DNA of 64,000 nt, taken from the NCBI GenBank assembly GCA_000092065.1, contig CP000594.1. One strand, 5' to 3'. Position 1 is the stretch's first letter, and the number at the start of each line of letters is the position of its first letter. The notes beneath the pieces were generated by a model. That model was not told where the DNA came from, ran no database searches, and was given only the letters and a program-made list of their open reading frames with translations. Shown piece by piece: positions 2,543-64,000 of the stretch. Position numbers and translations under genes: made by a program. The stretch comes from Ostreococcus lucimarinus (taxonomy: Eukaryota).

Positions 2543-3850
2543 ATGATGCGAATCGTCGTCGTCGTCGTCGTCGTCGCGAGCGCGGCGCGCGTCGAGCGCG
2601 CGCGCGCGTCGACGATCGTGGACGCGTCGAGCGACGTCAGAACGGGCGGTTTCGCGGAGGTGCGCGGTCGGGCGCTTCGCGGGACGAGCGACGCGGAGGC
2701 GTGTCGAGCGCGCGCGTGGGCGACGGGCGCGGACGCGCCGGGCGGCGCGTCGACGGCGGAGGCGACGTGTGCGGCGATCAGTGCGACGTCGGCGACGCGA
2801 TGCGAGGCGGCGATGGCGTCGTTGAAGTGTCGGCTCGCGCGGGCTGGCGCGCGCGCCCGCGCCGAGGCGTGTGACCTCGCGAGCGCGGACGATTGCGAAC
2901 GGTGCGTCCTGCGCGCGCTCGGACGAGGCGCGAGAGGACGCGGAAACATGAACGACAACGATTGGGACGACGCGGTGGAAGACGAGGCCGCTTTTGAGAG
3001 TGACCGCGCGATTACGCTGGACCGCGCGGTGGAGTTTTCAATGTACGTCGACGAAACGCACGCCATCGACAGCGATTGCAAGTTTTTGGTCTCCATGTTC
3101 AGAGCCGAGATGGCATCGCGGGTCGTAGAGTCATTCTCCACGCTGCTCGCAGAGGCGCAGCGCGAGGCCAAGGCGAGGGCGGAAGAAATCACCATCGCGC
3201 TCGCGGAAATTGACGAAGCGGCTCGCAGAAACGCTCGCGACGTCGAGCAAGCGGCGATGGCGCTCGACAAAGTACGCCGCGACCAGCTCGAGTTCGCGAC
3301 GCGGTTTGAAACGTTTGCGGCAAACTTGAACGCCGCGCTGGACCGCGTGGAGCGCGCGTCGCGCGGCGCGCTGCGCGCCGCTCGATTCGCCGCCGAGCTC
3401 GCGAAGCGCTGCGCGGGAATCGTTTCCGAAACCTTCGCGTCGTTGGTTTCGGTTGAGATGATTTTCGTGCGCTTCATCGTCATCGCGTTCGGAACCACGC
3501 GCCCGGCTTTACGGCGTTGCTGCTTTACGGCGTTACTCGTGGAGTGGATGTTACGCGCCGCGCCGCGAACGGCGGCGACGACGCCCTCCAATCGTCTTCG
3601 CCTCGGTCTCCTCTGCGCGTTCGCGCCCAGGATCTGGACGTACGCGAAAGAGCAACTACATCGCTCGCGACGCGACGACGCCGAGACGGGTCGCGTCGAC
3701 GTCGGCGCGAAACCGCGATCCGGTCGTCGCGCGCGAGGCGTCCCCGCGGCGCGAATCGAACCGTCGCCTCGAGTCCCCGAGCCGACGATCGCATCGCCGC
3801 GTCGCGCCAGCGCGCGCCTTCGCGCGACGAAGACGACAAAAATAATTTAA
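2543..3850 (+). CDS. Hypothetical protein; alternative start ATG 2948 (MNDNDWDD...). The central part has ordinary protein composition; both ends are low-complexity.
   Basis: ORF 2543..3850. Region 2948-3480 encodes a non-repetitive sequence (FSMYVDETHAIDSDCKFLVSMFRAEMASRVVESFSTLLAEAQREAK...). The antisense ORF 2227..3591 is Ser/Ala low-complexity. The N-terminus contains a (GTC)8 microsatellite. Confidence 0.3.
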   Translation: MMRIVVVVVVVASAARVERARASTIVDASSDVRTGGFAEVRGRALRGTSDAEACRARAWATGADAPGGASTAEATCAAISATSATRCEAAMASLKCRLARAGARARAEACDLASADDCERCVLRALGRGARGRGNMNDNDWDDAVEDEAAFESDRAITLDRAVEFSMYVDETHAIDSDCKFLVSMFRAEMASRVVESFSTLLAEAQREAKARAEEITIALAEIDEAARRNARDVEQAAMALDKVRRDQLEFATRFETFAANLNAALDRVERASRGALRAARFAAELAKRCAGIVSETFASLVSVEMIFVRFIVIAFGTTRPALRRCCFTALLVEWMLRAAPRTAATTPSNRLRLGLLCAFAPRIWTYAKEQLHRSRRDDAETGRVDVGAKPRSGRRARGVPAARIEPSPRVPEPTIASPRRASARLRATKTTKII

Positions 3851-4902: not shown

Positions 4903-5031
4903 CGCGTCGCCGTCCCGCCTTCCATCTTTCATACGACACATATTATAGCGTATAAATCCCCATCAATCTATTCCCGCCGCGGTCGACGCATTCCAGAACC
5001 CTCGCGCGCGCGCCGCATTCCGCGTCGCTCG

Positions 5032-6354
5032 ATGTCCGCGCCCGCGTGTTCCGCGTCGCTCGCGCGCGCGTCGCGCGTTTCGACGCGCGCGCCGCGCCGT
5101 CGCGCGCGTTTCGACGCGTCGCGACGCGCGCCGACGCCGCGCGGACGCGCCGACGCCGTTCGAACGATGGCGGCGGACTCGAAGCACCTGCAGCGCGTTC
5201 TCGTCACCTCGCGCGACGGGCTGACGAGAGAGCTCGACGAAGACGTCGACAGCGTCGTCATCGACTGCGACGGCGTCGTCTGGAACGGCGACGCGCTGAT
5301 ACCGGGGGCGAAAGCGGCGATAGAGGCGCTGCGGGCGAAGAAGAAGAGGGTCTTTTTCGCGACGAATAACTCGACCAAGTCGCGAGCGCACTACGCGGCG
5401 AAATTCGCGTCGCTGGGTGTGGACGTGTCGAAATATGAGATATACACGTCGGCGTACGCGGCGGCGATGTACCTGAAACAGCGAAGGTTCGATGAGATCG
5501 AGGACGGGGACGACGCGGAGCCGCGCGGGGAACACGGAGAACGAGTCGGAGACGCGCGACAGAAAAAGGTGTACGTGATCGGTGAGAGAGGCGTGATGGA
5601 GGAGATGGAGGAGGCGGGGATTGATGTTGAGGCGGGGGTGTACGACAGCGTGCGGTGCACGGGGAGAGATTGGGAGGAGATGGAGGAGTGGTTGGATCCG
5701 GAGAACGACGTCGGGGCGGTGGTGGTTGGGAGCGATTCCGCGTTTACGTTTGCGAAATTGGCGTACGCGTCGCTGCAGATACAGCGCGGGGCGCTGTTCA
5801 TCGCCACGAATCCCGATGCGGGGGATAAGATTGGTCGAGCGCTGTATCCAGGGGCGGGCGCGATCGTGAACGCGGTCGCGACGGCGTGCGGCGAGCAGCC
5901 GGAAATTTATTGCGGCAAGCCGAGCTCGTTCATGTTGGATTTGCTCTGCGAGCACACCAACATCGACATGTCCCGCACGCTCGTCGTCGGCGATAGAATA
6001 GACACCGACATTGCGTTCGGCAAGGCGGGTAAAGCCGGGCTCACCGCCCTCGTGTTCACCGGCGTCACCGACTCTGAACAGCTCAGAGAAAAGTGTCTGC
6101 TCGCCGACGCCGACGAATCGCTCGCCGACGCGCTCCCCGATCGCGCCATCGGCTCCCTCGCCGAGCTCGTCGGGCTGACGTTCGATCCCGACGAAGTCTG
6201 CGACAGCGTCAGCGACGTCGACACCGACGTTAACATCGACGAAGACGACATGCTTCGCGCGTTCCCCGTGAGCGACGCGCCGTTGCCCGAGTGGTCGCAA
6301 TACGACGACGACGACGATCAATTCGATCAAACGCAGTACGCGCCGGCGTCGTAA
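5032..6354 (+). CDS. PGP: Phosphoglycolate phosphatase (HAD-superfamily PGP/4-nitrophenylphosphatase type), with a likely plastid transit peptide and an acidic C-terminal tail.
   Basis: ATG 5032; alternative ATG 5167 (MAADSK). VVIDCDGVVWNG..., FFATNNSTKSR and LVVGDRIDTDIAFG are HAD motifs I-III of PGPase. Confidence 0.85.
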   Translation: MSAPACSASLARASRVSTRAPRRRARFDASRRAPTPRGRADAVRTMAADSKHLQRVLVTSRDGLTRELDEDVDSVVIDCDGVVWNGDALIPGAKAAIEALRAKKKRVFFATNNSTKSRAHYAAKFASLGVDVSKYEIYTSAYAAAMYLKQRRFDEIEDGDDAEPRGEHGERVGDARQKKVYVIGERGVMEEMEEAGIDVEAGVYDSVRCTGRDWEEMEEWLDPENDVGAVVVGSDSAFTFAKLAYASLQIQRGALFIATNPDAGDKIGRALYPGAGAIVNAVATACGEQPEIYCGKPSSFMLDLLCEHTNIDMSRTLVVGDRIDTDIAFGKAGKAGLTALVFTGVTDSEQLREKCLLADADESLADALPDRAIGSLAELVGLTFDPDEVCDSVSDVDTDVNIDEDDMLRAFPVSDAPLPEWSQYDDDDDQFDQTQYAPAS

Positions 6355-6537
6355 TTCATCACTATATTTTAATCTGTAGTCTGACGAAAGTTTTCGAAAT
6401 CATTCGCCTCGCCTCGCCCGAGCGCGCCTCGCCCGACCGCGCGGTTTGGGGGGGACTAAAAGTCGGTTAGACTTTACTACGCGTGGTGAAAATGAATCGT
6501 CGTGACCGCACATCTCGGCGCATCGCGCGCGCGCGCG

Positions 6538-9500
6538 ATGGATCTCGCGAAAACGATCCCAAAATGTCTCAACGACGCGCAAATCTCGTTGACGACGCAC
6601 AAGCGCGGCGCCAAGACGCTGTGCGCGGTGCGAAACGAAGACCCAGAGACGTTTTTACCGACGTTTTGTAACGCAATCTTGCCGGTTTTGCTCGAGTACA
6701 AGGTACGCTTGGACGCCGCGGCGACGCGCACGCGCGCGGACGATACGGTGTCGTCGTTCGTTGGATGTGGACGATCAGAGACGGCGGGAAACGCGCGTGT
6801 GAGATGCGAATGCGATGGAACGATGACGCCGGGACGCGGCGAGCGCGCGAGACGGGACGACGACTGACCGAACGCGGCGAACGCTCGAACGAGACGCAGC
6901 GAGACGTGTGCACCGAACGTGTCGTACGATTTATCGTCACCTTTTGCGCGTGGCGCGAGGAAGGAATGGAGGAAGACGCGGATGAGTTCAACGAGGCGTT
7001 TTTGGGATTTTTGCTCAACTTGCACGGAGCGAAGGACAAGGCGGTGCGATTCCGCGCGTGTCAAATCATCGCGGGTGTGCTGAATGGACTCGGTGCCGAC
7101 GCTGAGGTGAGCGATGAGTTGTATGAACGCATGACGGACGTGATGCTGGAGCGGATTCGGGATAAGATGCCGCCGGTGCGGGCGCAGGCGGCGCGAGCGC
7201 TGAGTCGTTTGCAAGACGGAGGGGAGACGCAAGATTTCTCGCAGGATGACATCACGCAAGCGTTCGTGGAGTTGCTCGGAAGCGAAAAGAACAAAGAGGT
7301 GCGAAAGGCGATTTTGGGCTCGCTCGCGATCTCTGATTACACGATTCCGTGCGTTGTAGAACGCACGCGGGACGTGGCGGAGGACGTTCGTCGCATCGCA
7401 TTTTTGGCGCTCACGTCCAAGGTGCCCGTCGAGTCGGTGTCTATCGCGCATCGTGCCTTGGTTTTGCGTCGAGGTTTGAATGATCGCGCACCCATGGTTC
7501 GAAGCGCGAGCGTCGAGATGCTCAAGCGATGGCTCGAAGCATTCCAGGGCGACGTCGTGAAATTCCTCACCGCGCTCGACGTCGAGTCCAACGAATCCGA
7601 AGCCGAGCTCGCGCTCAAGGAACTCATCACCATCGGTCGCATCAAGCCTATGGACGTGTGCAAAGACGTCGAGCTGGTGTCGAAAGGTTTGAAACGCGAC
7701 ATCGACGTCGACGGTCTCATGACGCCCGAAGAAGGGTTGTACTGGCGCGTCGTTTTGCAACATTTGGCCGAAGCCTCCGCCGTCAAGGGCGCAAATTCGG
7801 CGCAGTCGGTCGGTCAAGCGCGGGAAATCGCCGTCGCCGAAGTCGGTGAGATGATCGAAGCTATGGAATCGGCGTTACCGCCGACGGCGATGGATTTGCT
7901 GAGCATCGTGAGCTCGCACGCGAAGAGCGCGGAAGGGAAATTCGCGGCGAGACAACTCCTACCTCTTCTCAAATGCGTCGATCTGAACGACGGTGCGATT
8001 CGACGAGGCGCCATCAACTTGGTCGCTGAGCAGCTTCACGTCAAACCCGTGGTGAATTCGCACGGATCGTCGTACGCGTGCGGGGGTGATGGCAAGTGGG
8101 AGAGCGCGCTCGTCGAAATTGCTCGTCTCGTCGCCAACGATTCCACCGAATTCGCCGGTCTCGTTTTGGACGCCGCAGATTCTCTTCAAATGTCTGGTAC
8201 TGCCGAATCGCTCACGCAGGCGTTGTACATCGCGGGTTCTTTGCTCGAGCGCACGTCGAAGCGTTTACCATCCGTCGCCGCCGAAGCCGTGATGGACTCT
8301 TTGATCAAGCCCGCGGTGACGCACTCCACCACGGCGGTTCGCCGGGAATCGATGCGCGTGCTGGGTCTCTTACTCGCTTCTCAAGGCGTCATCAACCCTG
8401 ACGCGGTGGTGATTCTGCGAACGGCCTTAAGTGCCGATGCCGCGCCCGTTCGATGCATGGCGGCTCGCGCGCTCGGCGACGCAGCGCTTCTTCATGGTCC
8501 CGCGGCGCTGGACAAATATCGCGTCCTCGTCGATCCGGAGGATGAAGACGTCACTGAATCCGCATTCAACGCGAGTCTTCCTCTCGAGATTGCACTCATG
8601 AAGTGCCTCGATGAAGAAGGAAAACCATTTGTGTTCAAAGCGAACGCGTATGATTTGGAAGACGTAGATGTTGAAGACGTGGATGCCACCAAGGCCGCCG
8701 CGGCGGTGGAGGCGGAGGAAAGCGTCGGCACCGTCGCCGCGGAGTCGCTCTGCAAAATCATCCTTCGTCGCGGTGAAGGCGCGTTTGAAGCCGCTGCGGC
8801 GGTTGTCTCGCGATTGCTTGGCAGCTACTTTGCGGCGGATGCGCAGCGAAGACCGCGTCTCGCACAATGCTTGGCCGTCTTCTTCCCGGCGCTCGCAAGC
8901 GGGCCGGAGGATCGTCGACGCTTGCTCGCGGATTGCGCCCTGCCGGCTTTGCGCGCCGCGGCTAAGATCAAGGGCTTGTCGCGCGTCGCCGCCCTTCTCG
9001 TGCAACTTCTCACCGCGTCCGAAGAACCGACGGCGGGCGGCGCCGAACTCGCCCTCGCGTTGGCGAACGAATCTCTGGCGTTAAGCACGAAGCAAACGCC
9101 ATCTGGCGCGCAAGCACCGCTCGCCAAGGCGTACACCAACGCCATCGCTCGCGTGTTATCTGTCGTTCCAGTGAAATCCACGCGAGACGAAGTCGACGTC
9201 GCTGAAAAGGTCGAGCTGAACGACACGTTAACCAAGGCTTGGCACGCCGCCGTGCTCGCGGCGGAGCGAACAAAGGAAAAGTCTGCGGCCAAGGATTTGG
9301 CGATGGCGGCAGAACGTCTTCGCTCGAATTGCCTTGCGACACAAAAGACGGTGGCGCCCGAAACCGAAGGTAGCGAAGGAATCGCCGTTCCAGCGGATGA
9401 CGACGACTTATCGACGCAGATGAACGACGACGTTCGCGCCGCCGTGATGGAGTACGCAGAGGAGCTCGCCAACGGCGCTGACGTACCGTTTTGCGGTTCT

Positions 9501-9683
9501 AAAGTGAAAGCCGCCAAGGTGAAAGCCGCGCCCGCGGTGCCGACGCGCGAGTCTCGTTCGCGCGCGAGCAAAACTGCGGCGGCGGATAAGCTGAAAGACG
9601 ACGACTTGAAGAAGCCGCTTCCGAAAGTCACGCCCGAACGCAAGTCTCGTTCTCGACGAGGCGCGCTGCAAGAAACAAACTGA
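6538..9683 (+). CDS. CND3: Condensin complex subunit 3 (CND3/CAP-G), HEAT repeats. Two exons: 6538..6702 and 6900..9683. Intron 6703..6899 (GTACGC...ACTGAC...CAG).
   Basis: Exon 1 MDLAKTIPKCLNDAQISLTTHKRGAKTLCAV...LLEYK and exon 2 RDVCTERVVRFIVTFCAW...AVRFRACQIIAGVLNGL...MPPVRAQAARALSRLQD align with the NCAPG N-terminus. Donor GTACGC follows AAG at 6700-6702; acceptor CAG ends at 6899, in frame. Confidence 0.8.
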
Positions 9684-9728
9684 CGCGAAACATCGATGTG
9701 ATATTAAATAAACTCCTAACCACACTAC

Positions 9729-10643
9729 TCAGTTCTTCTTCTGGCCACGCCTCAGCTTCATCAGCACGACCGGCGCGGAGACTTTAACGCGAATATCCAA
9801 CTGATCGAGATCGTGCCCTCCCTCGACTAACCCCCACTCCTCGATCTGCGCCTCCTCCTCGACGCGCGCCGCCGCGATGGCTTCATCCACCGTCAGCCCT
9901 CCTCGAAGCGTCTTCAAACTTATCAACAACGACTTCGTCGCCGCGCTCAGCGCGAACGCGCACGTCAGCTCCCACGGGCACATCGCGTGCAACCGCCGCC
10001 GCAGCACCTCCACCGTCTTCTCGCTCGTTCCCGGTCCAAAGATCGAATCCGACGTCTCCACCGGTCCGAACTCTCGCTCCGCCCACGCCACGATCGGATC
10101 GTGCGCCTTCGCCTGCCTCGCCGCCGTCGCCTCGTCCGGGCTTCGCACCCGCGTCGCGTCCGTGCCAAAGTATTTCAGCAGCGTCTCCACGTGCACCCGT
10201 CGCGTCTCCGCGTCTCCCATGTGATCGATCGCCGTCGCGCTCAGCGACGTCAGCGGCATCGTAAACGGCGCGATGCGTTCGCCCTGCGCGTCCCACTCCG
10301 CCGCGACCGCGCGCGCCAATCCCTCCGTCGCGAACGCGTACTCGTTTCGCTTCGGCGTTCGCAGCGCGCGCGCGTCGAGCTCGACGCGCCACGTCCCGTC
10401 GCGCGCGTCGCGTTCGCGCGCGTCGACGCGCTCGTAAAACCTCGGCGCCGTGCCGTCGGCGCCCATCGTCATCGCGACGCGCTCGGACGACGCCTCGCCG
10501 CGCGTGCGCCCGACGCGCTTCGCCGCCTCGGCGCGCGCGCGCAGCGACGCGCTGCGCGCGTCGCTCGCGTCGACGGGCGCTCGCGACGACGCCGCGCGTC
10601 TCAGCGCCGCTCGGACGCGATCGAGCGCGCGACGCGCGCGCAT
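9729..10643 (-). CDS. ATP12: ATP synthase mitochondrial F1 complex assembly factor 2 (ATP12/ATPAF2).
   Basis: ATG at 10643. RFYERVD....PFTMPLTSLSATAIDHMG...LTCAFALSAATKSLLISL is a typical ATP12 family sequence. Confidence 0.85.
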   Translation of the reverse strand: MRARRALDRVRAALRRAASSRAPVDASDARSASLRARAEAAKRVGRTRGEASSERVAMTMGADGTAPRFYERVDARERDARDGTWRVELDARALRTPKRNEYAFATEGLARAVAAEWDAQGERIAPFTMPLTSLSATAIDHMGDAETRRVHVETLLKYFGTDATRVRSPDEATAARQAKAHDPIVAWAEREFGPVETSDSIFGPGTSEKTVEVLRRRLHAMCPWELTCAFALSAATKSLLISLKTLRGGLTVDEAIAAARVEEEAQIEEWGLVEGGHDLDQLDIRVKVSAPVVLMKLRRGQKKN

Positions 10644-10703
10644 GGCGTCGCGATGTGCCGTCGCGATGCGCGCCGGCGCGCGCGGGCGTCACTCATTCGC
10701 GAC

Positions 10704-12413
10704 ATGTCGAGCGACGACGCGTTCGAGGACGCGTTGGACGACGCGCGCGACGACGCAGACGACGCCTCGAGCGACGACGCGCGATCGGACGCGTTCGAGG
10801 ACGCGCTCGGCGCGCACGCGGCGCGATTTCCGTTGCACCGCGCGGCGTTCGAGAACGACGTCGACGCGGTGCGAGCGCTGCTGGCGCGCGACGACGTCGA
10901 CGCGAACGCGCGCGACGACGCCGGGCACTGCGCGTTGCACGTCGCGGCGCTGAGGCGCGCGGTGGGGGCGACGCGGGCGCTGGCGGCGAGCGCGCGGGTG
11001 GCGACGGAGGCGCGAGACGCGAGGGGCTGGACGGCGACGCGGTTGGCGACGGATCGAAGGGCGCGCGCGTGCGTCAGAGCGCTCGTGGAGGCGAACAGAG
11101 CGAGAGAAAAGAGGTTGGCGCGAGAGATTCGACCGGAGATGGCGCGGGCGGTGGAGGGCGTGGGGGATTTTGAGACGCGCGCGGCGTGGCGGTTCGGTTC
11201 GCGAGTGTTGGCGCCTTTGATTAAGATGGTGGCGCCCAGAGACGCGTACGCGGTGACGTGCGTGGGGAAAAAGCTGAGAATCGACGGCGAGTTGAGAGGG
11301 ATCGATTCCGAGGCGTTGGTGCGGTCGATGATGCCGAAATGGCGACGAGGGAAGTTTAGCTTGATTTACGACGGCGACGCGGGCGAACGCGCGGCGCTTT
11401 GGTTCGTCGATCACGAATCGCGAGAGGTGGTGAACGCGATGGAAAAACCCACGAGACGGGACGGCGATGATGCCGACGCGGCGTCGACGAGCGATGCGCC
11501 GCCGCTCACGGAGGAGGAGATGATTGACGCGATCACGGACGCGTTGCTCGCCGAGGGTGCGGCGAAGAAGAAGGTGCGAACGGAGGGTTTCAAATTCGCA
11601 CCGGTGAAAGGATGGATCGCGGGAAAAGCCAGCGCGTGGATTGGAGGACGCAAGGCGGAAATTTGGGAGGCGACAGCGAAGCTGGCGCGCGAGACTGTGG
11701 CGCCGGGAGGGGGATTTAAACTCGACGGTTCGTTTGAGGAGTACGTGGAGAGCGCGAACGACGCGCGAGAAAACGTCGTCACGCGCGCACCTTTGGGCGA
11801 GTCTTCGAAAGATAAATCCGGGTTAAACATCGATGATAGTAAGGACATGCCACAGCGTCTTCGTAAGATGTCGGCGCGATGTTGGCTCGTGCGCGACTTC
11901 CCTTTAAAGGCGAGTCAGGCGTCGCAGATTTTGGACGTCTTGGAGCGTGCGAATAAAAACGCCGCGCACGTGAACCGCGTGGTGAAGTATTGGTGCTCAA
12001 ACCACGAAAACATGTTTCCGGTGAAGATCCAAGTCCCGCTTATGCTCACGATTTACGCCCAAGTGCAATTTAAAGATTTCAAAGCGCTCGACAAGCGCGC
12101 TCGGGAAGCCAAGTTGCGAGACGGCTTCTTCGAAATTCCGTCGGATTATCGCGTGAAATCTGTGGATGAGATGCTCGCTGAAGTGGAAGAGCGCGCAAAT
12201 CGTGACATGGAACGCATCGAGGCGCTGGATGAGTCGCTGGACGTCGATAACGAGACGGAAGAAATTCGACAGTTGCGCGTCGAACTAGAACGCCTGGCGA
12301 AAAACACGTCGGGCGAAGACGAAGGCGACGATGAATACGAGTTTGACGACGACGACGACGACGAAGACGAAGACGACGAAAACTTAGATGCCGATAGAAT
12401 GAATGTACGCTAG
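10704..12413 (+). CDS. Ankyrin repeat domain 13 (ANKRD13)-like protein: N-terminal ankyrin repeats, GPCR-chaperone domain, acidic C-terminal tail.
   Basis: ATG 10704. FPLHRAAFENDVDAVRALLAR...GHCALHVAAL (ankyrin). CWLVRDFPLKASQASQILDVLERANKNAAHVNRV...FPVKIQVPLMLTIYAQVQF matches the ANKRD13 conserved core (FPLSL...FPVKIEIPLFHV). The upstream part of ORF 9987.. is antisense to ATP12. Confidence 0.8.
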   Translation: MSSDDAFEDALDDARDDADDASSDDARSDAFEDALGAHAARFPLHRAAFENDVDAVRALLARDDVDANARDDAGHCALHVAALRRAVGATRALAASARVATEARDARGWTATRLATDRRARACVRALVEANRAREKRLAREIRPEMARAVEGVGDFETRAAWRFGSRVLAPLIKMVAPRDAYAVTCVGKKLRIDGELRGIDSEALVRSMMPKWRRGKFSLIYDGDAGERAALWFVDHESREVVNAMEKPTRRDGDDADAASTSDAPPLTEEEMIDAITDALLAEGAAKKKVRTEGFKFAPVKGWIAGKASAWIGGRKAEIWEATAKLARETVAPGGGFKLDGSFEEYVESANDARENVVTRAPLGESSKDKSGLNIDDSKDMPQRLRKMSARCWLVRDFPLKASQASQILDVLERANKNAAHVNRVVKYWCSNHENMFPVKIQVPLMLTIYAQVQFKDFKALDKRAREAKLRDGFFEIPSDYRVKSVDEMLAEVEERANRDMERIEALDESLDVDNETEEIRQLRVELERLAKNTSGEDEGDDEYEFDDDDDDEDEDDENLDADRMNVR

Positions 12414-12457
12414 AACTGTATAATTACACCTTACAACACGAGACGCATCACATCACG

Positions 12458-13159
12458 CTACCCGTTCGCGGCTTTGACGAGTTTCGCCTCGCCGTACGAT
12501 CCGTCAAAGTATCTCTCCAACAGAATGGCCGCGCTCGCCGAATCCAGCGCCCCGTTCTCGTTCGACCCCCCACTCGTCGCGATGCGTTCCGACGCTTCCT
12601 TACTCGTCCTAGACTCGTCGTACGTGTACACCACCAAAGCCTTCGTCTCGGCGTTCGTCGAACGCGCGCACGCGTCCGCCACCTCTCCCGCGAATCGAGC
12701 GCACACCGCGTGCATTTGCACCGCCCCTCTCCCGCGTCCGCGACGATCTTTCGCCGCCCTCCCCGGTGGCACCGGAATTCCAACCACGATTCTATCGCAG
12801 CATTCCTCCAGCGCGACGTCTAAGATGGCTCTGACCGTGCTCGTCGTCGTCGCCGTCCCGCTGTGCGTCAGCGTTCGCAGCGGCCGCGGCGCCGCGCCAC
12901 CGTTCGACACCGCCAGACCGACCCTGCGCGCGCCGTAATCCACCCCGAGCGCGATGACATCACCGCGCGCGCGTCTCGCCGCGCGTAACTCATCCTCGAG
13001 CGACGACGACGACGTTTGCGCGTCCGTGAAGGGCGCGCGGCGTTGAGAAAACCACGACGGGGACATCGCGCGCGCGACGCCTCTGTCGACGCCGTGGCGA
13101 CGCGCGCGCGACGAGGACGACGGTACGAGCGCGCGCGAGCCGTTCGCCGCGCGAAACAT
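12458..13159 (-). CDS. YqgF/RuvC-like (RNase H fold) putative pre-16S rRNA nuclease / Holliday-junction resolvase-like protein, probably organelle-targeted.
   Basis: ATG at 13159. LGVDYGARRVGLAVSN is the YqgF signature (G.D.G.+R.G.A.SD). Size and composition are consistent. Confidence 0.75.
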   Translation of the reverse strand: MFRAANGSRALVPSSSSRARRHGVDRGVARAMSPSWFSQRRAPFTDAQTSSSSLEDELRAARRARGDVIALGVDYGARRVGLAVSNGGAAPRPLRTLTHSGTATTTSTVRAILDVALEECCDRIVVGIPVPPGRAAKDRRGRGRGAVQMHAVCARFAGEVADACARSTNAETKALVVYTYDESRTSKEASERIATSGGSNENGALDSASAAILLERYFDGSYGEAKLVKAANG

Positions 13160-13309
13160 GGTTCGCGCGGTGATGCGCGGCGCGCGGGCGAGTGGCGCGT
13201 CGAGCGGCGGCGGCGAGAGGAATCGAGTGGAAGCGTACGCTCGCGACGAACGACCGCGGTGAATGAGGTGTGCTATTGAAATGAATAGAATCTAATGGCG
13301 CGGCGACGC

Positions 13310-15106
13310 TCACGCGCTGGAGGCGAAGAGTTGCGAAAACACGCGCTCTGCCCACGCCGGAATTTCCACGTCGTTTGCCTGCGTAAAGTTCACGAGCGGT
13401 TCCTGGACGTGATAACGAATCTTTCGACCCTTGCTCGCCTTGCGATCGACGTTTTTGCGACGTTTGATTTGTTTGGAGACGACGGAAGGTCCACCGGCGA
13501 CGCCGGCGTCGTTGCCGCTCTCGAGGAACTCTTTGAGGAGTTGCTCGTAAAAGTCGACGTCGTCGTAAAGCTCCGACTCGCGAGCCTCACCTTCGTCCAA
13601 GCCATCGACGTTGACGGTTTCGGCTTTGTTCTCGTCGTCATCGTCGGCTTCTTCGCTCCGCACGGCGGCGCGTCGCTCACCGACGCGAATCGGCGCGCTG
13701 CGCTTCGGCGGCTGCGACTTTTCAATCAAACGCGCGGGCGCGCGCATGGTGGACGATACTTGCTGAGAGATGGACTGGTTGAACGCCTTCAGACCGCCGC
13801 CCGCGCCTCCGCCGACCGCTTTACCCACGGAGACGGCGGATTTTCTGTACCATCGATCGCACGTCGAGTCGCGGTAGTTTGCGAACGCTCTGTATCCGGC
13901 GTCGTGCTTCGTCCACGCGTCGTCCAAGTCGTCGTCCACACCAATCACCGTAGCGTCCGCGCCGAGATTTGAGGTCGAGGCTATGTCGGCTATGTTCGCC
14001 ATCAACGCAGTTTGAAGCGCAGAGAGCGTTCGCATGGTCTTCCGTGCGACTTTGGATAACGTCTCGAACGATTCGCGCGTCTCGGGCGACGCGCGTTTCA
14101 GTCCTCGGCACGCCAACGCCGTCGGTAACTTGGCGGCTCCGGTCATGACTTTCTGCAAACGAATTCTCGCGTGTAGCGCACGCTCCCAAACCGTTCGTTG
14201 CGCGCGAACCGCCTTACCTTTCGAGACGTGCTGCGCCTTGGTGTCGACGAGCTTCTTCGTTTGTTCCTCCTCCTCGCGAAACGCTTGAAGCTCTCGAGCG
14301 AGATCTGCGTCGCCTTCCGTGGCGGCGCCCAACAAATCTCTCGCCCGCGCGCCCTGCGCGTCGAACTCATCGCTCTGATCCTCGTCGTCCTCGTCCTCGT
14401 CGTCCTCGTCGCCGCCGTTCCTTCGTCCGGATCCCGTCGCCGCGGCGTCTTCGTCGTACCCTTCGTACGCGTCGTCGTCCTCATCCGCGTACGGATCCTC
14501 ATCGCTCGCGTCCCCATCCTCCTCCGCACTTTCCTCGTCGTCGTCCCCGTCGTCCCCGTCGTCGTCGTCGCTCTCGTCCTCATCCGTCTCGCGCGCCGCC
14601 TCCGGTTCGTCCCGCGCGAAGTCCCGCCTCGACGCGCTTCGTCCCGCGTACTCCTCCCCCTCCATCTCGATCGGTCCTCGCATCCGCAACCGTCCGTCGT
14701 TCCCCCCCCCCGCGCGCACCGCGCGCTTTCCTCGCTCCCTCCCTCGCCTCGCCGCGCGTCCGCTCTCGCGATCGTCGCTCGAATCGTCGCCGAACCCGTC
14801 GCCCGCGTCGCGTCCCGCGTCGTCGTCCCACCCATCCTCGCTCCCGCTCTCGTCCTCGTCCAGCGCGCCCTCGATCGCGCGCAGCGCCTCGAACGCGCGT
14901 TTGCGCGCCTCTACCCCGCCCTCTGGCTCGAGCGCGCGCGCGCGCGCGTCGTCGTCGTCGTCGTCGCGCGTCGTCGCGCCGCCGCCGGCGTCCCCACCGC
15001 GCGTCGTCGCGCCGCGCGCGATCGCGTCCAGCCGCGCCATCGCGTCCGCGCGCGAGGGCGTGGACGAGGGCGACGCTTTCGCGCGTCTCCGCGGCGTCGC
15101 GCCCAT
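13310..15106 (-). CDS. AATF: AATF/Che-1/Bfr2 family nucleolar protein (AATF domain plus TRAUB domain), very acidic N-terminal half.
   Basis: ATG at 15106 (MGATPRR). The ORF-track start 15190 is a GTG. WERALHARIRLQK..., the C-terminal YDDVDFYEQLLKEFLE and PAWAERVFSQLF match AATF-Che1 and TRAUB domains. Confidence 0.8.
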   Translation of the reverse strand: MGATPRRRAKASPSSTPSRADAMARLDAIARGATTRGGDAGGGATTRDDDDDDARARALEPEGGVEARKRAFEALRAIEGALDEDESGSEDGWDDDAGRDAGDGFGDDSSDDRESGRAARRGRERGKRAVRAGGGNDGRLRMRGPIEMEGEEYAGRSASRRDFARDEPEAARETDEDESDDDDGDDGDDDEESAEEDGDASDEDPYADEDDDAYEGYDEDAAATGSGRRNGGDEDDEDEDDEDQSDEFDAQGARARDLLGAATEGDADLARELQAFREEEEQTKKLVDTKAQHVSKGKAVRAQRTVWERALHARIRLQKVMTGAAKLPTALACRGLKRASPETRESFETLSKVARKTMRTLSALQTALMANIADIASTSNLGADATVIGVDDDLDDAWTKHDAGYRAFANYRDSTCDRWYRKSAVSVGKAVGGGAGGGLKAFNQSISQQVSSTMRAPARLIEKSQPPKRSAPIRVGERRAAVRSEEADDDDENKAETVNVDGLDEGEARESELYDDVDFYEQLLKEFLESGNDAGVAGGPSVVSKQIKRRKNVDRKASKGRKIRYHVQEPLVNFTQANDVEIPAWAERVFSQLFASSA

Positions 15107-15171
15107 GCCGGGCGTCGCGACGGCGCGTGACGCGCGATGGGGACGACGCCGACGGCGGACGCGCGTCGTGT

Positions 15172-15342
15172 ATAAAAACCCGTCTCGCACTGCGCACCAT
15201 ACGTGATATCAACAAAACCCGTCTCGCACTGCGCACCATACGACGCGAGCAGTGATATGAAAACCCGTCTCGCACTGCGCACCATACGACGCGCGCAGTG
15301 ATATCAACAAAACCCATCTCGCACTGCGCACCATACGACGCT
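15172..15342. repeat. Four tandem copies of a ~47-bp unit with core AAAACCCGTCTCGCACTGCGCACCATACG, preceded by TGTATAAAAAC, in the divergent AATF/psaD promoter.
   Basis: Copies start near 15175, 15215, 15258 and 15311. They read tgatatcaacaaaaccc(g/a)tctcgcactgcgcaccatacgacgcg(a/c)gcag, with few substitutions. Confidence 0.85.
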
Positions 15343-15462
15343 ACCGCGGCGTATCTCGCGCGCCGCGCGTATCGCGAGCGATCGCGCGCGGCCGACGCGG
15401 GCGCGGCACACGCGCGCGCCCGACGCCCGCGCCCCCGAACTTCGCGGACGCGACACACGACG

Positions 15463-16527
15463 ATGTTTGCCATCTCCAGCTCCGCGCTGACGCCGCGCGC
15501 GACGGTCGCGAACGCGACGCGCACGCGACGATCGACGACCGCGCGACGATCGACGGCGATCCGCGCCGAGGCGGAGGGCGCGAAGGCGGCGCCGGCGGCG
15601 CCGAAGGCGTGGACGGCGCCGAAGTTGAACCCGAACACGCCGTCGCCGATTTTCGGTGGTTCCACCGGCGGTCTGTTGAGAAAGGCGCAGGTGCGCGAGC
15701 GACGAGGGAGCGGCGAACGCGCGCGACGATCGAGGCGCGGGCGGGATACGCGACGAACCTAGGGGTGATGATTGGGGCGATTGGGGCGCCGGCGAACGGA
15801 GGGGGGGGGGCGAACGATGCGCGAACGATGCGTCGAGTTTCTTTGCGGCGCGGGCGCGCGGGCGATCGGGGGGGGGTCGAACGCGCGCGACGACGCGCGC
15901 GCAATCGCGCGATCGGGCGCGGTGGGATGGGAACGTTTGGCGCGAGGCGCGCGGGGGGGATTTCAAAGACGACGACGACGCGAGACTGACGGATGCGATG
16001 ATGCGTTTGACGCGTGTAGGTTGAGGAGTTCTACGTGCTGACGTGGGAAGCGAAGAAGGAAGCCATCTTCGAGATGCCGGTGCGTGGACGAGGCGAGCGC
16101 GAAGGCGCGCGCGCGCGAAGATATCGCGCGCTTTGAAACGACGCGACGACGAAGAGGCAAAGATTGGGGATGCGCGACGCGATCGTGGACGCGAAACAGC
16201 GACTGACGTGATGAAACGTGTATTTTGCATCCGCAGACCGGTGGTGCCGCGATCATGCGCAAGGGCCCGAACCTGTTGAAGCTCGCGCGCAAGGAGCAAT
16301 GCCTCGCGCTTTTGAACAACTTCCGCGCGAAGATGAAGCTCGACGGCTGCATCTACCGCGTGTTCCCGTCCGGTGAGGTGCAATACTTGCACCCGAAGGA
16401 TGGTGTGTACCCGGAGAAGGTGAACAAGGGTCGCGTCGGTGCCAACCAGAACATGCGATCGATCGGCAAGAACACCAACCCGGCGTCGATCAAGTTCCAA
16501 GGCAAGCTCGGCCCGTTCGAAGTTTAG
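15463..16527 (+). CDS. psaD: Photosystem I reaction centre subunit II (PsaD) precursor. Three exons: 15463..15690, 16014..16073, 16237..16527.
   Basis: Spliced product is MFAISSS...(transit peptide)...[15 protein letters not shown]|[20 protein letters not shown]|[25 protein letters not shown]...[18 protein letters not shown]...[10 protein letters not shown], near-identical to plant/algal PsaD. Introns are 15691..16013 (GTGCGC...GACTGAC...TAG) and 16074..16236 (GTGCGT...GACTGAC...CAG). Confidence 0.9.
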
Positions 16528-16977
16528 ACAGACGGCTCGCGCTCGCCGCGCACCGAGGGTTCGGTCGTCGTCGTCGAGTCGCCGCTCGAGTCAGATGTCC
16601 GTCGATGTGTTTCACTCTTCGCGATGCGAAGTCAACGCGAGATGGCGCTCGTTTGAATTATTAGAATTCTTCGACGTCCCTCGCGCTTTGCGTCGCGTCG
16701 AGCGCGCTTCGACGTTCGCGGCGTCTGATTTCTTCGCGCGGCGTCGCTCGACGCTTCGATCTCACCCTCTGCGCGCGATCGTGATGTAAATCACGCCTCC
16801 TAGCCAAACTAATTGCAGTAACACACAGATTTTCACTGTTCATCCGCGCGCGCGCGTTCGCCCGCCCGCGCGCGATCGCCGGTCGCCGGTCGAGATCTTC
16901 GCCGCGATGACGCTGGCTGCGCGCCGTGGAATGACGCACATCGTATTTTAGAGCCATTATATATGCAAGATACGTTT

Positions 16978-16988
16978 TTAGGGTTTAC
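16978..16988. promoter_or_regulatory. Telo-box-like interstitial telomeric motif TTTAGGGTTTA, followed by TATAAT, ~210 bp upstream of the CHL27 ATG.
   Basis: The sequence is acgtttttagggtttacctataatttcgcg at 16973-17002. It matches 1.5 units of the terminal TTTAGGG repeat. Confidence 0.3.
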
Positions 16989-17199
16989 CTATAATTTCGC
17001 GCGATCGGATCTTATCTGAGAAAATCTATACTGTTTGCGCATACGACGCGGACGCCCTCGGGACGACCCGCATCGGATAAGCGCCGACGATCGTCACAGC
17101 ACGCCTCGCGTTCGCCGCTCCGTCCGCTCGCGACGCCGTGACGAAAGCAGACGCACGTAACACTTTGCGCACGCACCACCGCACGCCTCGACGAGCGAC

Positions 17200-18426
17200 A
17201 TGCACGCGTTCACCATGCGCGCGAGCGCGATGAAGACGCCGGTGGCGAAGATGACGTCGAGATCGCGATCGGCGACGCGACGCCAAGGCGCCGTGGTCGT
17301 CCGCGCGGCCGCGGCGACGGACGCGGAGACTGGGATCAAGAAGATGCGCGAGGGTATCAAGGAGGCGGCGAACGAAAACTTGTTGACGCCGCGATTTTAC
17401 ACGACGGATTTCGACGAGATGGAGCGCCTGTTCAGCACGGAGATCAACCCGAACTTGGACGAGACGGAGATTAACGCCATCTTGAACGAGTTCCGCGAGG
17501 ATTTCAACCAGAAGCACTTCGTGCGCAACGATGAGTTCAAGGCGGCGGCGGATCAGATCAAGGGTGAGCCGCGCAGAATTTTCATCGAGTTTTTGGAGCG
17601 CTCGTGCACGGCGGAGTTTAGCGGGTTTTTGTTGTACAAGGAACTCGGCCGCAGATTGAAGAAGACGGCCCCGGCGGTGGCGGAGATCTTCACGTTGATG
17701 TCCCGCGACGAGGCGCGTCACGCTGGGTTCTTGAACAAGGCGATGAGCGATTTCAACTTGGCGCTCGACCTCGGGTTTTTGACCAAGAACCGCCAATACA
17801 CGTTTTTCCAGCCGAAGTTCATCATGTACGCCACGTACTTGAGCGAAAAGATTGGCTACTGGCGTTACATCTCCATCTACCGCCACTTGCAAGCGAATCC
17901 GGACGAGCAATTGTACCCGTTGTTCAAGTACTTTGAGAACTGGTGCCAAGACGAAAACCGTCACGGCGACTTCTTCTCGGCGATTTTGAAGGCGCGCCCG
18001 GAGTTGATCAACACCACCGAAGCGAAGCTCTGGTCTCGATTCTTCTGCTTGTCCGTGTACGTCACCATGTACTTGAACGATCACGGCCGCAGTGAGTTCT
18101 ACGAATCGCTCGGTTTGGACACGACGCAATTCAACATGCACGTCATTCACCAAACCAACAAGACGACGGCGACGATTTTCCCGCAAGTCATCGACACCTA
18201 CAACCCGGAGTTCAAGGCGCGTCTCGACAAGCTCGTCGGCGTGAACACCCAACTCCAAGCCATCGGTAAGGGTGAAGGTTCGGAAATCATGAAGAACTTG
18301 CAAAAGGCGCCGCTCATCGCCACCTTCGCGGGTGAGTTGATCGGTTTGTTGGCCATGGCTCCGGTCGACGCCGGTTCCATCGACTTGACCGGCGTTCCGG
18401 AATCCGACCCGTCCTTCATGTACTAA
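17200..18426 (+). CDS. CHL27: Mg-protoporphyrin IX monomethyl ester (oxidative) cyclase (CHL27/CRD1/AcsF), plastid precursor.
   Basis: ATG 17200. [14 protein letters not shown]...[17 protein letters not shown]...[16 protein letters not shown]...ENRHGDFF shows the di-iron carboxylate motifs of AcsF. Full-length single exon. Confidence 0.95.
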
Positions 18427-59828: not shown

Positions 59829-60428
59829 ATGGACGCCGAGACGGTGACGAGCGCACTGCGCGCGGCGTCGAAAGTAGGTTCTGCCGCAGTGGTCATCATC
59901 GAGGTGTGCGACGCGAGCGACGATCCGTCGTCATCGACGTTCGTGTTTCAACGGAAAACGGCTGGATATCCCGCGGCACACTTCGTCGGTTCGCTGTGTT
60001 TATTTGGCGGCAACGCTGAAAAAGAAGACGCGACGGCGCGCGCGACGTTGGAGAGGGAGCTCGCAGAGGAGCTTCCGGACGCGTTCGTAAGCGTCGTCAT
60101 GGCTAACGCGCGCGCGCACGGGCGGTACCTCGTTGCGGACGCGAAAGGCGCGTACGCTTTCATCGCGTGCGCGTTCGCGGCGAGGATACGCGCGACCAAC
60201 GTCGACGTCGACGCGCTAGTCACGGATGAAGGCGAATTAGCGGTATTAAGTGTCAGTCAGTGTGGTTGTGAGTCGTTCGCGTGGTCGTACGATCGCGTCT
60301 TCCGGGACTATCTCGTTCTTCGCGATGGCCCGCACGACGTCGTTGAGGATGCACAAGGCGAACGGCGCGATGAAGCCGTCAAAATATCCGACGACGCGGA
60401 CGTCGGCGAATGGGCGGTACTCGTGTGA
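59829..60428 (+). CDS. Hypothetical protein, possibly a divergent Nudix-fold hydrolase.
   Basis: ATG 59829 (MDAETVTSALRAAS...). Degenerate Nudix-box-like segment GGNAEKEDATARATLERELAEELP, compared with GX5EX7REUXEEXGU. Low certainty. Confidence 0.35.
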   Translation: MDAETVTSALRAASKVGSAAVVIIEVCDASDDPSSSTFVFQRKTAGYPAAHFVGSLCLFGGNAEKEDATARATLERELAEELPDAFVSVVMANARAHGRYLVADAKGAYAFIACAFAARIRATNVDVDALVTDEGELAVLSVSQCGCESFAWSYDRVFRDYLVLRDGPHDVVEDAQGERRDEAVKISDDADVGEWAVLV

Positions 60429-60489
60429 ATGATACTGTAGAATTAGCAACGGTAAATTATATTATTTCAACTTGTAGAAGGATGGCTGT

Positions 60490-60561
60490 ATTTATTGAGT
60501 TTCACGGTATCATTTATTGAGTTTCACGGTATCATATTTATTGAGTTTCACAGTATCATTC
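60490..60561. repeat. Three tandem copies of a ~24-bp AT-rich unit (TTTATTGAGTTTCACGGTATCAT) in the convergent 3' region between the Nudix-like gene and the P2X gene.
   Basis: The sequence is ggctgtatttattgagtttcacggtatcatttattgagtttcacggtatcatatttattgagtttcacagtatcattcgtt. Confidence 0.8.
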
Positions 60562-62356
60562 GTTACCGTCTTCGTCGTTAAAGTACTCGCGCATCTTTTT
60601 CACGAGCGCTTGCTCTTCTTTGTCCATCCTGATGATCTTCCTCAGCATGTCGTTGTCCATCGGACCTTCAGTGGTCAACTCGACCCATTCTTCCAAATCG
60701 ATTTTCACGTTCTTGAGTTGACTGTAAGACATTCGCGGCAAACCCTTGGCGTAGCGCTCTTGCGCGTGGCGATCGGCGGTGAGCATGATGTATTTGGACA
60801 TTTGTCTGCACTCGTCAAGCGTGAGACGACGCGATTTGAACTTGTCCGCGTCGAAATTTTCCGATCCCCTTTCGGCGACAGACATTCCGTCGACGCTGTG
60901 GAACGCCTCGACGAGGAGTTCGTAGATTTCTTCAATGTCCAAACCGTCGCCGCTACGCTTGGTGTCCGCGGCGCGGAAGGAGTTCACCGCCATCGCGCCT
61001 TGGATGGCGTACTTTGCGGCTTCGCGTTCAAAGCTCGCGGGCTCCAACATGTGGTTGGAGTAGACGAGTGAACGCGTACCGAGTCCGTACATCGCGACGA
61101 TATCGCAAATCGAGCCCGCGACCTTCAACAGCACGAGACCAGAAACGAGGACGTTGATCAAATACACGTAGTTCACCGAACCAATGATTCCGCTCGTGGT
61201 GACGTCGATGAAAACGCCGTAAGCGTACATGTTGATAAATGTCCCTGTCGGTTTCCCATCGTCCAGGTCGATGGGATCGTCGAGGTCGGTAATCGTCGAT
61301 CGGTACTGGATGCGCTGGCCCTTGGACGTCCAATCGATAGAAGGCTCGATTTCGAGCACGGCATACGGACTATCGCCGTCGGAGATGTCGTCCGAAGCGC
61401 TCGCGGTGTGCAGGTTGTAGTTGTAGTACTGAAGCTTCGCGTTGATGCGCATACCAGCGAGACGGGCCATGGGGGTCACGCTCGCGCTGCCGCCCTTGCC
61501 GTAAAACACGGATGGGTCTCTGCCGGCGAACGCCACTTGATCTTTGTACGTCTTATCGAGGTCGATGTTGGCGACGTCGAGAATATCCTTCAGCTTGAGA
61601 GAGATGTACTGACCGGCTGGGATAATTTTCAAATTCGTCGAAGATCCGGGTCGGCGCACGTACGTCTTCGGATTCGCGGCATTCGCGAGACCTGAGAGCG
61701 TGTCAAACTCATGAGAAATCCCGATGCTCGAGTGCTCGGCGCCGATGGTCAACCAATCGGTTACGCTCTCATAATAGCAAACGCCGTTCGATCCAGCCAC
61801 GCTCACGGGGTCCACATTGCCCGCACCGTTCGTAAAACCGCCATAAGCCACGCAGTTACCAGAGGGTTTCAGGGAGCGATGAGTAATCGTCTCGGTCACG
61901 TGCGTCGTGATGAACATACCTCCCGCCGGTTCTTTCGAGATGATTTCATCCGGCGTCAAGTAACCGCACTTGACGTTGTCGTACACCCAAGCAGTGTCAT
62001 AGTTGAACGCGTACGACGAATTCAGCGTCGCAGACGCAGCGCTTGCGCACGGCAGCACCGGGTACGTCTTCCCGTCGGTGTACGTCTTGGTCGTCGCCGC
62101 GGTGGCGGCGGCGGCGTCCACCTGCGCGGTGTAAAAGTCGTCGTTCCCGTTCCCCCAGTTCGTCACTCGACCGATCGGGACTTCGGTCCGCAGGTACGTC
62201 TTCCCGCGTACCAGAGCATAGACGACGTAAAACACGATGACGGCTTGCAGCGCGACGTTCAGAAGCGCCAGTCTCCAATCTATGATCTTCACGAACTTGG
62301 ACGTCTTGTAGCCCATCTTGCGCGACAGCGCGGTGGCGAGCGTGACCCACCCCATG
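60556..62356 (-). CDS. P2X: P2X receptor-like ATP-gated cation channel (two TM helices and a large Cys-containing ectodomain) with a ~230-aa C-terminal cytoplasmic extension.
   Basis: ATG at 62356 (MGWVTLATALSRKMGYKTSKFVKIIDWRLALLNVALQAVIVFYVVYALV). The YxTxK pre-TM1 motif and TM1 are present. The ectodomain has conserved Cys/Gly-rich segments. The second TM is VNYVYLINVLVSGLVLLKVAGSICDIV. An acidic tail follows. The upstream part of ORF 60556..62751 is a non-ATG extension. Confidence 0.7.
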
Positions 62357-63814: not shown

Positions 63815-64000
63815 CTTAGGGTTTAGGGTTTAGGGTTTAGGGTTTAGGGTTTAGGGTTTAGGGTTTAGGGTTTAGGGTTTAGGGTTTAGGGTTTAGGGTT
63901 TAGGGTTTAGGGTTTAGGGTTTAGGGTTTAGGGTTTAGGGTTTAGGGTTTAGGGTTTAGGGTTTAGGGTTTAGGGTTTAGGGTTTAGGGTTTAGGGTTTA
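63815..64000 (+). repeat. Telomere: about 26 perfect (TTTAGGG)n repeats, G-strand 5'->3' toward the window end, running to the edge.
   Basis: The sequence is catgcttagggtttagggtttaggg... and continues to 64000, preceded by the C-rich ctccctccct. It is the plant/green-algal telomere repeat type. Confidence 0.95.

Follow-up and report, generated by a model that had tools for sequence, protein, structure and literature searches.

In a 64,000-nucleotide (nt) stretch of Ostreococcus lucimarinus DNA (contig CP000594.1 of assembly GCA_000092065.1; hereafter the window), four tandem copies of the 29-mer AAAACCCGTCTCGCACTGCGCACCATACG lie between the divergently transcribed genes AATF and psaD. This array is a locus- and species-specific minisatellite of variable copy number that forms the low-GC island of the AATF/psaD promoter and lies outside the observed psaD mRNA. 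By its structure (tandem units, an upstream position, and polymorphism in the population) the closest known kind is the promoter variable number tandem repeat (VNTR), and the array failed the tests for a TATA box, a repeat in the 5' untranslated region (UTR), a dispersed repeat, and a cis-element conserved or shared among photosynthesis genes.

The repeat array and the search for related sequences

The initial annotation of this DNA, made from its letters alone, had placed four near-identical tandem copies between the AATF ATG (15106, minus) and the psaD ATG (15463, plus), and our analysis confirmed both the copies and their position in the shared upstream region of the divergent pair. The copies are arranged head to tail (Table 1); three are exact, and the single mismatch of the fourth is also present in haplotype L024. 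Start-to-start spacing is 39, 46, and 49 nt, such that the annotated value of about 45-50 bp holds for the second and third intervals and not for the first. Tandem Repeats Finder (TRF) reported a period of 46, 2.9 copies, 89% matches, and a score of 236, which makes the array the top-scoring complex tandem repeat of the window, the telomere excepted. No further copy of the 29-mer was found on either strand in the rest of the window, and the array is non-random in that none of 100 dinucleotide-preserving shuffles contained any match to it.

When the 20-nt core pattern CCRTCTCGCACTGCGCACCA was scanned across a public metagenome collection, six contigs matched, five of which were the present locus at 97-99.7% identity. 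The sixth (L022) was an unrelated high-GC contig, apparently bacterial, whose stretch 3410-3480 includes the exact core and, 21 nt further, a second ACTGCGCACCA, just downstream of a stop codon. We judged this match to be due to chance, since by a rough estimate one to a few chance 20-mer matches are expected for a collection of such size. With about five contigs of the locus, the collection should sample the genome several-fold, and the scan yielded no near-exact copy of the unit near any other O. lucimarinus gene. The viral collection (IMG/VR) contained no match to the core, and a viral origin of the unit was rejected on this basis. Likewise, 362 kb of Ostreococcus DNA contained no other copy when as many as 6 mismatches in 28 nt were allowed. 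Copies at unrelated loci, as expected of a dispersed repeat or transposable element, were thus absent from the window, the metagenomes, the viral collection, and this Ostreococcus DNA, and the generic genome-wide repeat that the annotation had named as its own refutation was not what we found. A literature search returned no paper describing the repeat or motifs of Ostreococcus psaD promoters.

Natural variation in copy number and unit structure

Eleven further haplotypes were obtained from contigs encoding an identical CHL27 protein and from the contigs of the 20-mer scan. The twelve haplotypes carried 2, 2, 2, 3, 3, 3, 3, 3, 4, 4, at least 3, and at least 2 copies. With both flanks present there were four copies in the window (the reference) and L006, three in L002, L003, L019, L021, and L024, and two in L001, L004, and L005; the contigs of L020 (at least three) and L023 (at least two) end inside the array. 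Every haplotype had a minimum of two copies, and because two-copy alleles occur naturally, four are not required. Head-to-tail units of 38-49 nt, an upstream position, and a copy number that varies among independent samples, by which promoter VNTRs are recognised, were all found here.

Larger changes were also seen. Between copies 1 and 2, L006 (7893-8007) carries a 98-nt AT-rich insertion flanked by direct GACCGGT, and the same structure was found again at the start of the L020 contig, which came from another sample. The 'empty' alleles at this site read ...CATACCGGTGATATC, and a small mobile element, or else a repair event, may have left the insertion as its footprint. In L001 the place is occupied by a different filler of roughly 80 nt, and in L024 one spacer is a copy of the left flank.

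Alignment of 20 internal units, 14 of them distinct, resolved a common plan. Box A, AAAA[C/A]CCGTCTCGCACTGCGCACCATAC, is 28 nt long with one variable column. It is followed by a CpG-rich linker, GACGCG[A/C]GC[A/G/C], which shows substitutions and in some units is partly or wholly deleted, then by the constant box B, GTGATAT[C/G], after which AAC is optional. Box A showed no difference at positions 9-25 in 34 of 34 copies, and since a search allowing 6 mismatches yielded no degenerate copies, the way in which the copies were gathered does not explain this invariance. Some variants belong to a particular copy and recur among haplotypes, with AAAAACC in copy 1 of six haplotypes and CCCATC in the final copy of two; homogenisation of the copies is therefore not rapid. 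With gap columns taken as variable, 1 of 25 columns was variable in the core versus 18 of 24 in the remainder (Fisher p=2e-7).

The array is a break point for short-read assembly: four metagenome contigs (L019, L020, L021, and L023) end within or beside it, and L019 is chimeric, with window 5571-14443 joined to inverted 15854-15214.

Position of the array relative to the psaD transcript

The psaD transcript was represented by six spliced contigs, which came from different public assemblies, samples, and library types; none of them contained repeat sequence. The 5' tips of four lie at 15417-15420, which is 43-46 nt before the ATG and some 80 nt past the last repeat copy, and two of these four run straight into Nextera or TruSeq adapter sequence. 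In the remaining two contigs the 5' end is chimeric or very short. With transcription starting near 15418, the array spans about -243 to -81, and it is still upstream for any start within 15338-15420. The initial annotation had called for the psaD start to be mapped, with a repeat in the 5' UTR as its alternative to a cis-element. By these transcript tips, which are ends of short-read assemblies beside a block of 86% GC, the array is outside the observed mRNA, and the 5' UTR alternative was not supported.

One psaD transcript contig of a related, L018-like lineage has a 129-nt 5' UTR and starts, within ...GTACGACGACGCG, where the low-GC island ends on its 3' side; given this leader and the GC-rich block next to the observed tips, the true psaD start in O. 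lucimarinus may be anywhere in 15338-15420. The same contig, together with the CATACGACGC at the end of the O. lucimarinus island, favours a rival explanation in which the units are tandem core-promoter modules or a transcribed 5' UTR repeat, each with a weak TATA-like GATATCAACAAAA and a start about 35 nt downstream near CATACGAC, such that psaD transcripts would begin at the end of the last unit or inside the array, some with repeats in the 5' UTR. The block at 15375-15424, which adjoins the observed tips, is 86% GC and could truncate cDNAs or assemblies, giving false tips at -45. We consider this explanation improbable, since no transcript contig carries the repeat and four of them stop within a 4-nt window, an upstream ATG (GATATG) occurs in some units only, which is unlike a constrained leader, and no short transcript-like contig with the core appeared in the metagenome scan. 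As an initiator, a role suggested by the L018-clade transcript start, CATACGAC was rejected, except as part of this improbable rival, for want of any consistent position relative to gene starts in the window, its other occurrences being in coding DNA or upstream of a TATA box (at 4930, upstream of TATAAAT). The DNA around the array reaches 88% GC, with long (CG)n runs in 15375-15424 and the flanks; such tracts are prone to Z-DNA and slippage, and may bias cDNA or sequencing coverage near the psaD start.

The TATA-like element of the initial annotation, TGTATAAAAAC, is present as described, but it did not hold up as the psaD TATA box. A TATA box is expected some 25-35 bp upstream of the start site, and this element lies about 245 bp upstream of the inferred psaD mRNA 5' end, too far to serve as one. 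Nor is it shared beyond the reference strain: 10 of 10 other haplotypes covering position 15174 have G there (TATGAAA) in place of the A on which TATAAAA depends, and all environmental haplotypes covering the site read TGTATG.

The same element bears on a further rival, that the array serves AATF as an upstream element or insulating spacer, with the TGTAT(A/G)AAAAC junction, read on the minus strand, as the AATF proximal element. The first copy is just 68 nt from the AATF ATG, the reference minus strand has TTTTTATACA about 65 nt upstream of that ATG, and the island is longer and more AT-rich in the two lineages whose AATF does not adjoin psaD (L018 and L025). Against this, the A of the TATA-like sequence is restricted to the reference strain, the minus strand of each unit carries an ATG (CGTATGG) that would burden an AATF leader, and the records contained neither the exact AATF protein nor, among AATF homologues, a transcript-like O. 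lucimarinus contig by which to place the AATF start. We regard an array directed at AATF as distinctly unlikely.

Orthologous promoters in other Ostreococcus lineages

Orthologous loci were compared in O. tauri (L009), in four environmental lineages (L015-17, L018, L025, and L026), and in a fifth (L027/28). The four have AATF-psaD-CHL27 or RuvX-psaD-CHL27 synteny, and L027/28 has AATF-psaD only. In all seven lineages, O. lucimarinus included, GC content dips to a trough 130-330 nt before the psaD ATG, and the trough sequences are unrelated between lineages. In the window the trough is the array itself, at 50-58% GC between flanks of 78-88% GC, and across O. lucimarinus alleles it is made wholly of repeat units, from about 75 nt (two copies) to about 165 nt (four copies). 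A tandem array was absent from the psaD upstream region of all five environmental lineages. In L018 (2804-4081) and L025 (2627-3854), AATF is not between RuvX and psaD, and the islands there, far longer and richer in AT, fall to 18-24% GC.

The O. tauri AATF-psaD intergenic region contains two copies of an 80-nt direct repeat, 95% identical at 113-nt spacing (L009 9684-9876), and two copies of a 67-nt repeat, 94% identical, lie in the next bidirectional intergenic region, downstream of RuvX (L009 6387-6535). These repeats hint that local duplication in promoter islands may be a recurrent mutational outcome in Ostreococcus genomes. The 80-nt repeat resembles the array in its intergenic position, with conserved synteny, and as a local duplication inside a low-GC island. 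It differs in having only two copies, in the one genome seen, with 33 nt of unique sequence between them rather than a head-to-tail arrangement, and in its sequence. By eye, the two units share GTGAT...CACTGCG and ATACGTGAT, and a single GAAAACGAATCGTGCACC is present in O. tauri, but homology was rejected as chance resemblance by local alignment against dinucleotide shuffles (p=0.33-0.44), as it was, likewise for lack of significance, for L015, L018, L025, L026, and L027.

Interpretation of the array

Tentatively, and with somewhat less than even confidence, we favour an upstream activating module of slippage or exchange origin, with boxes A and B as predicted binding sites and copy number tuning transcription. 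Box A copies would be the sites of the replication slippage or unequal exchange through which the array grows and shrinks, a route supported by the L024 spacer that copies the left flank, and the haplotypes recombine the same blocks of box A, variable CpG-rich linker, box B, and optional AAC. The two boxes would be candidate protein-binding sites, which makes the array a putative multimerised upstream activating module. Copy number may then set both the number of sites and the 75-165-bp length of a presumably nucleosome-poor island separating two divergent core promoters, with the probable outcome of tuning the output of psaD, and possibly of AATF, rather than switching it on or off. This reading is suggested by an array that is unique to its locus, polymorphic, and upstream of the transcript, by the presence of two or more copies in all haplotypes, by the constancy of the boxes, by the invariance of positions 9-25 in copies that are not rapidly homogenised, by a trough whose position is conserved while its sequence is not, by the L018-like transcript that begins at the island edge, and by the precedent of promoter repeats that modify expression.

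Several results weigh against an activating module. The unit showed no significant local similarity to the psaD upstream regions of the six other lineages (p=0.18-0.99, dinucleotide shuffles), nor do the orthologous psaD promoters have any recurrent 6-7-mer of box A or B; the 125 nt that separate the array from the ATG served as a positive control and were significantly similar in 6 of 6 lineages (p<=0.04), with a score of 64 against O. tauri where the null maximum was 53. Neither the CHL27 upstream region nor any other intergenic region of the window yielded a relative of the unit. Against strict spacing stand the insertions of about 80-100 nt that separate copies in L001 and L006/L020. When only substitutions are counted, the boxes are variable at 2 of 36 columns versus 3 of 10 in the linker (p=0.06), and segregating sites in the flanking promoter DNA are of similar density (5/67 and 10/127), with 3/228 in psaD exon 1. 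The linker is (CG)n-like, slippage-prone, and perhaps hypermutable, which may be an alternative cause of its variability. The copy numbers come from short-read assemblies, several of them broken at the array, and the psaD 5' tips are short-read assembly ends that loss of cDNA or coverage at the GC-rich block could have shortened. The evidence for selective constraint on the boxes is suggestive, not decisive.

Much of this evidence suits a neutral or nearly neutral minisatellite, a young slippage product in a permissive, fast-evolving island, which we consider nearly as likely as the activating module. The constant boxes would reflect recent duplication and would serve as homology for exchange, and any low-GC sequence of similar length would do. 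Six related lineages, alignable in the rest of their psaD promoters, lack the unit, island sequence is unrelated in every lineage, structural polymorphism is extreme (the 80-100-nt insertions included), the density of segregating sites in the core is not clearly under that of the flanks, CpG and (CG)n mutability can account for the linker variation, and the local duplications of O. tauri, in two intergenic regions within 21 kb, suggest a general mutational tendency. Set against these are the invariance of positions 9-25 in 34 copies, which the copy-specific variants show to be old enough to have diverged, the lack of any haplotype below two copies, and the retention of box B in most units despite adjacent indels. 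A neutral array would show quick turnover of the upstream island in a compact bidirectional promoter whose proximal 125 nt are conserved.

The initial annotation had proposed a multimerised cis-element of a light-regulated gene. A multimerised element stays a reasonable reading of an array that is unique to its locus and non-random; the link to light regulation or to other photosynthesis genes was not borne out, since the metagenome scan yielded the exact 20-nt core at no other Ostreococcus locus and neither the CHL27 promoter nor the psaD promoters of the six lineages contain a relative of the unit. The element is thus neither common, in near-exact form, to other photosynthesis genes nor conserved in orthologous promoters. 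Within the species this comparison covered CHL27 alone, as the window has no further core photosynthesis genes. An exact 11-mer, CATACGACGCG, does occur at 17040 in the CHL27 promoter, but as an element common to both promoters it was rejected, because box A as a whole scores no better there than in other intergenic regions and because neither O. tauri nor L015 conserves the element upstream of CHL27.

If the activating module is carried one step further, the 2-, 3-, and 4-copy alleles of this species-specific element could act as an expression 'rheostat' that quantitatively sets psaD transcription and possibly photosystem I stoichiometry, which we think doubtful. Such a rheostat would let wild picoalgal lineages adapt rapidly to regimes of light or iron, and would be an example of a promoter island rebuilt de novo by tandem duplication around a conserved core promoter. 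Should copy number tune psaD at all, the array would be a simple cis-regulatory polymorphism that segregates in nature and acts on a core photosynthesis gene of a picoeukaryote among the most abundant in the ocean. Its alleles could be read straight from metagenomes and set against expression in metatranscriptomes, and Ostreococcus promoter engineering would gain a ready-made modular element.

Comparison with known systems

Human promoter VNTRs include MAOA-uVNTR, the INS VNTR, and MNS16A, and in yeast promoter repeats reportedly modulate expression, as shown by Vinces and colleagues in 2009. Like promoter VNTRs, the array has head-to-tail units of tens of bp within a few hundred bp upstream of a transcript, candidate binding sites in each unit, and a copy number that varies between individuals in nature. 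Unlike VNTRs with measured effects, it is known here from sequence alone. Its host is also unlike the usual ones, being a picoeukaryote with intergenic regions of about 350 bp, in which the array makes up most of the promoter common to two divergent genes. Yeast promoter repeats are AT-rich and nucleosome-excluding, whereas the array unit is 50-58% GC, though a GC trough for this genome.

Multimerised enhancers, such as the SV40 72-bp repeats and the duplicated modules of plant and viral promoters, provide a second comparison. The array is similar to these as a tandem module with conserved boxes, always in two or more copies, upstream of a very highly expressed gene; it is dissimilar in that the module is not common to other genes or sister species and is a candidate by sequence only.

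Light or circadian cis-elements of plants and green algae include the I-box GATAAG, the G-box and Z-box with ACGT cores, and the evening element AAAATATCT. Box B contains GATAT, and copy 1 of the reference has the Z-box-like ATACGTGAT, also present in the O. tauri repeat, but no canonical motif is complete in the array, and ACGTG occurs in one unit of the reference haplotype only. A telo-box reading of AAAACCC was rejected, as the unit has AAACCCG and not AAACCCT, the telomere here being TTTAGGG. The CHL27 promoter (16935-17052) has its own AT-rich island, with a telomere-like TTTTTAGGGTTTA, TATAAT, and a minus-strand I-box-like GATAAGAT (CAGATAAGATCC). GATAAGAT(TT) is also found upstream of O. 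tauri CHL27 (L009 11610-11650), and GATAAG upstream of CHL27 in the L015 lineage. Conserved between O. lucimarinus and O. tauri, the CHL27 GATAAGAT looks like a genuine light or circadian-type element, unlike anything in the psaD array.

Tandem repeats of variable copy number in promoters modify expression (PMC4857002), an effect also documented for promoter VNTR copy number (PMC5438627), with general evidence on promoter tandem repeats and VNTRs in PMC3516485; a passage of PMC3887541 cites Vinces et al. 2009 for an expression effect of promoter repeats. The evening element is functional in the O. tauri TOC1 promoter according to work cited in a passage of PMC2850359.

Gene context and the read-through reading frame

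The spliced psaD product matches the PsaD protein of O. lucimarinus CCE9901 at 100% identity; the coordinates of psaD, its neighbours, and the parts of the array are collected in Table 1.

Table 1. Features of the AATF/psaD intergenic region and adjoining genes (window coordinates).
Feature	Position	Strand	Remarks
AATF/Che-1 (TRAUB) coding region	13310-15106	-	AATF-Che1 and TRAUB domains; divergent from psaD
TATA-like element TGTATAAAAAC	15169-15179	+	Overlaps first copy
Array of four units (reference)	15175-15337	+	2-4 units in environmental haplotypes
Copy 1 of 29-mer	15175-15203	+	0 mismatches; first 28 nt are box A, AAAACCCGTCTCGCACTGCGCACCATAC
Box B GTGATATC after copy 1	15203-15210	+	Linker deleted in this unit; then AAC 15211-15213
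Copy 2 of 29-mer (box A)	15214-15242	+	0 mismatches
Linker ACGCGAGCA and box B GTGATATG	15243-15259	+	Linker 15243-15251, variable, CpG-rich; box B 15252-15259
Copy 3 of 29-mer (box A)	15260-15288	+	0 mismatches
Linker ACGCGCGCA, box B GTGATATC, optional AAC	15289-15308	+	Linker 15289-15297, variable; box B 15298-15305; AAC 15306-15308
Copy 4 of 29-mer, closest to psaD	15309-15337	+	One mismatch, G>A at position 8
GC-rich proximal psaD promoter	15338-15416	+	GCGTATC twice, GCGATCGCGCGCGG; conserved in six other Ostreococcus lineages
psaD 5' UTR per assembled transcripts	15417-15462	+	Tips of four contigs at 15417-15420
psaD exon 1	15463-15690	+	ATG 15463; Pfam match
psaD exons 2 and 3	16020-16079; 16237-16527	+	Spliced model, GT-AG introns
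CHL27 (Mg-protoporphyrin monomethyl ester cyclase)	17200-18426		Downstream neighbour of psaD

A minus-strand open reading frame (ORF), 14911..15285, traverses the repeats and encodes a repeated YGAQCETGF. The initial annotation had called it spurious, and we agree, because the unit lengths found across haplotypes (38, 39, 41, 46, and 49 nt) keep no reading frame. The ORF is one of two observations that speak for a structured non-coding RNA, a small peptide ORF, or a transposon fragment, the other being that CACTGCGC of box A can pair with GCGCAGTG of the linker in some units. This pairing is broken in many units (GCGGTG, GCCGTG, ACCGGTG), the frame is not preserved, and there is no other copy in the metagenome scan or in the 362 kb of Ostreococcus DNA. 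A structured RNA in particular was rejected, since even a threshold of E<=10 gave no Rfam match in the array and folding is unexceptional (z=-2.0 on the plus strand, -0.8 on the minus). We therefore give explanations of this kind almost no credence.

The array has practical effects on annotation as well as on short-read assemblies, which it breaks. Prokaryote-style gene calls on metagenome contigs (L001-L006) gave AATF products of 508-753 amino acids (aa), and the AATF cluster representative P0255 has 629 aa compared with 598 aa from the ATG at 15106. Some of the AATF ORF calls overrun the true start codon into or through the array, which thus misleads such callers into a longer ORF and contributes to mis-annotated AATF N-termini.

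At its far end (63816-64000) the window terminates in 26 perfect telomere repeats, TTTAGGG (reported by TRF as TTAGGGT), which places the psaD locus about 48.6 kb from the chromosome end. A second complex tandem repeat, the subtelomeric ATTTATTGAGTTTCACGGTATC, occurs at 60489-60560, with a period of 22-24 and about 3 copies. It lies in the short gap between an unannotated ORF (59829-60428, plus) and a gene with a weak P2X-receptor match (60556-62355, minus), touching the first bases of the latter.

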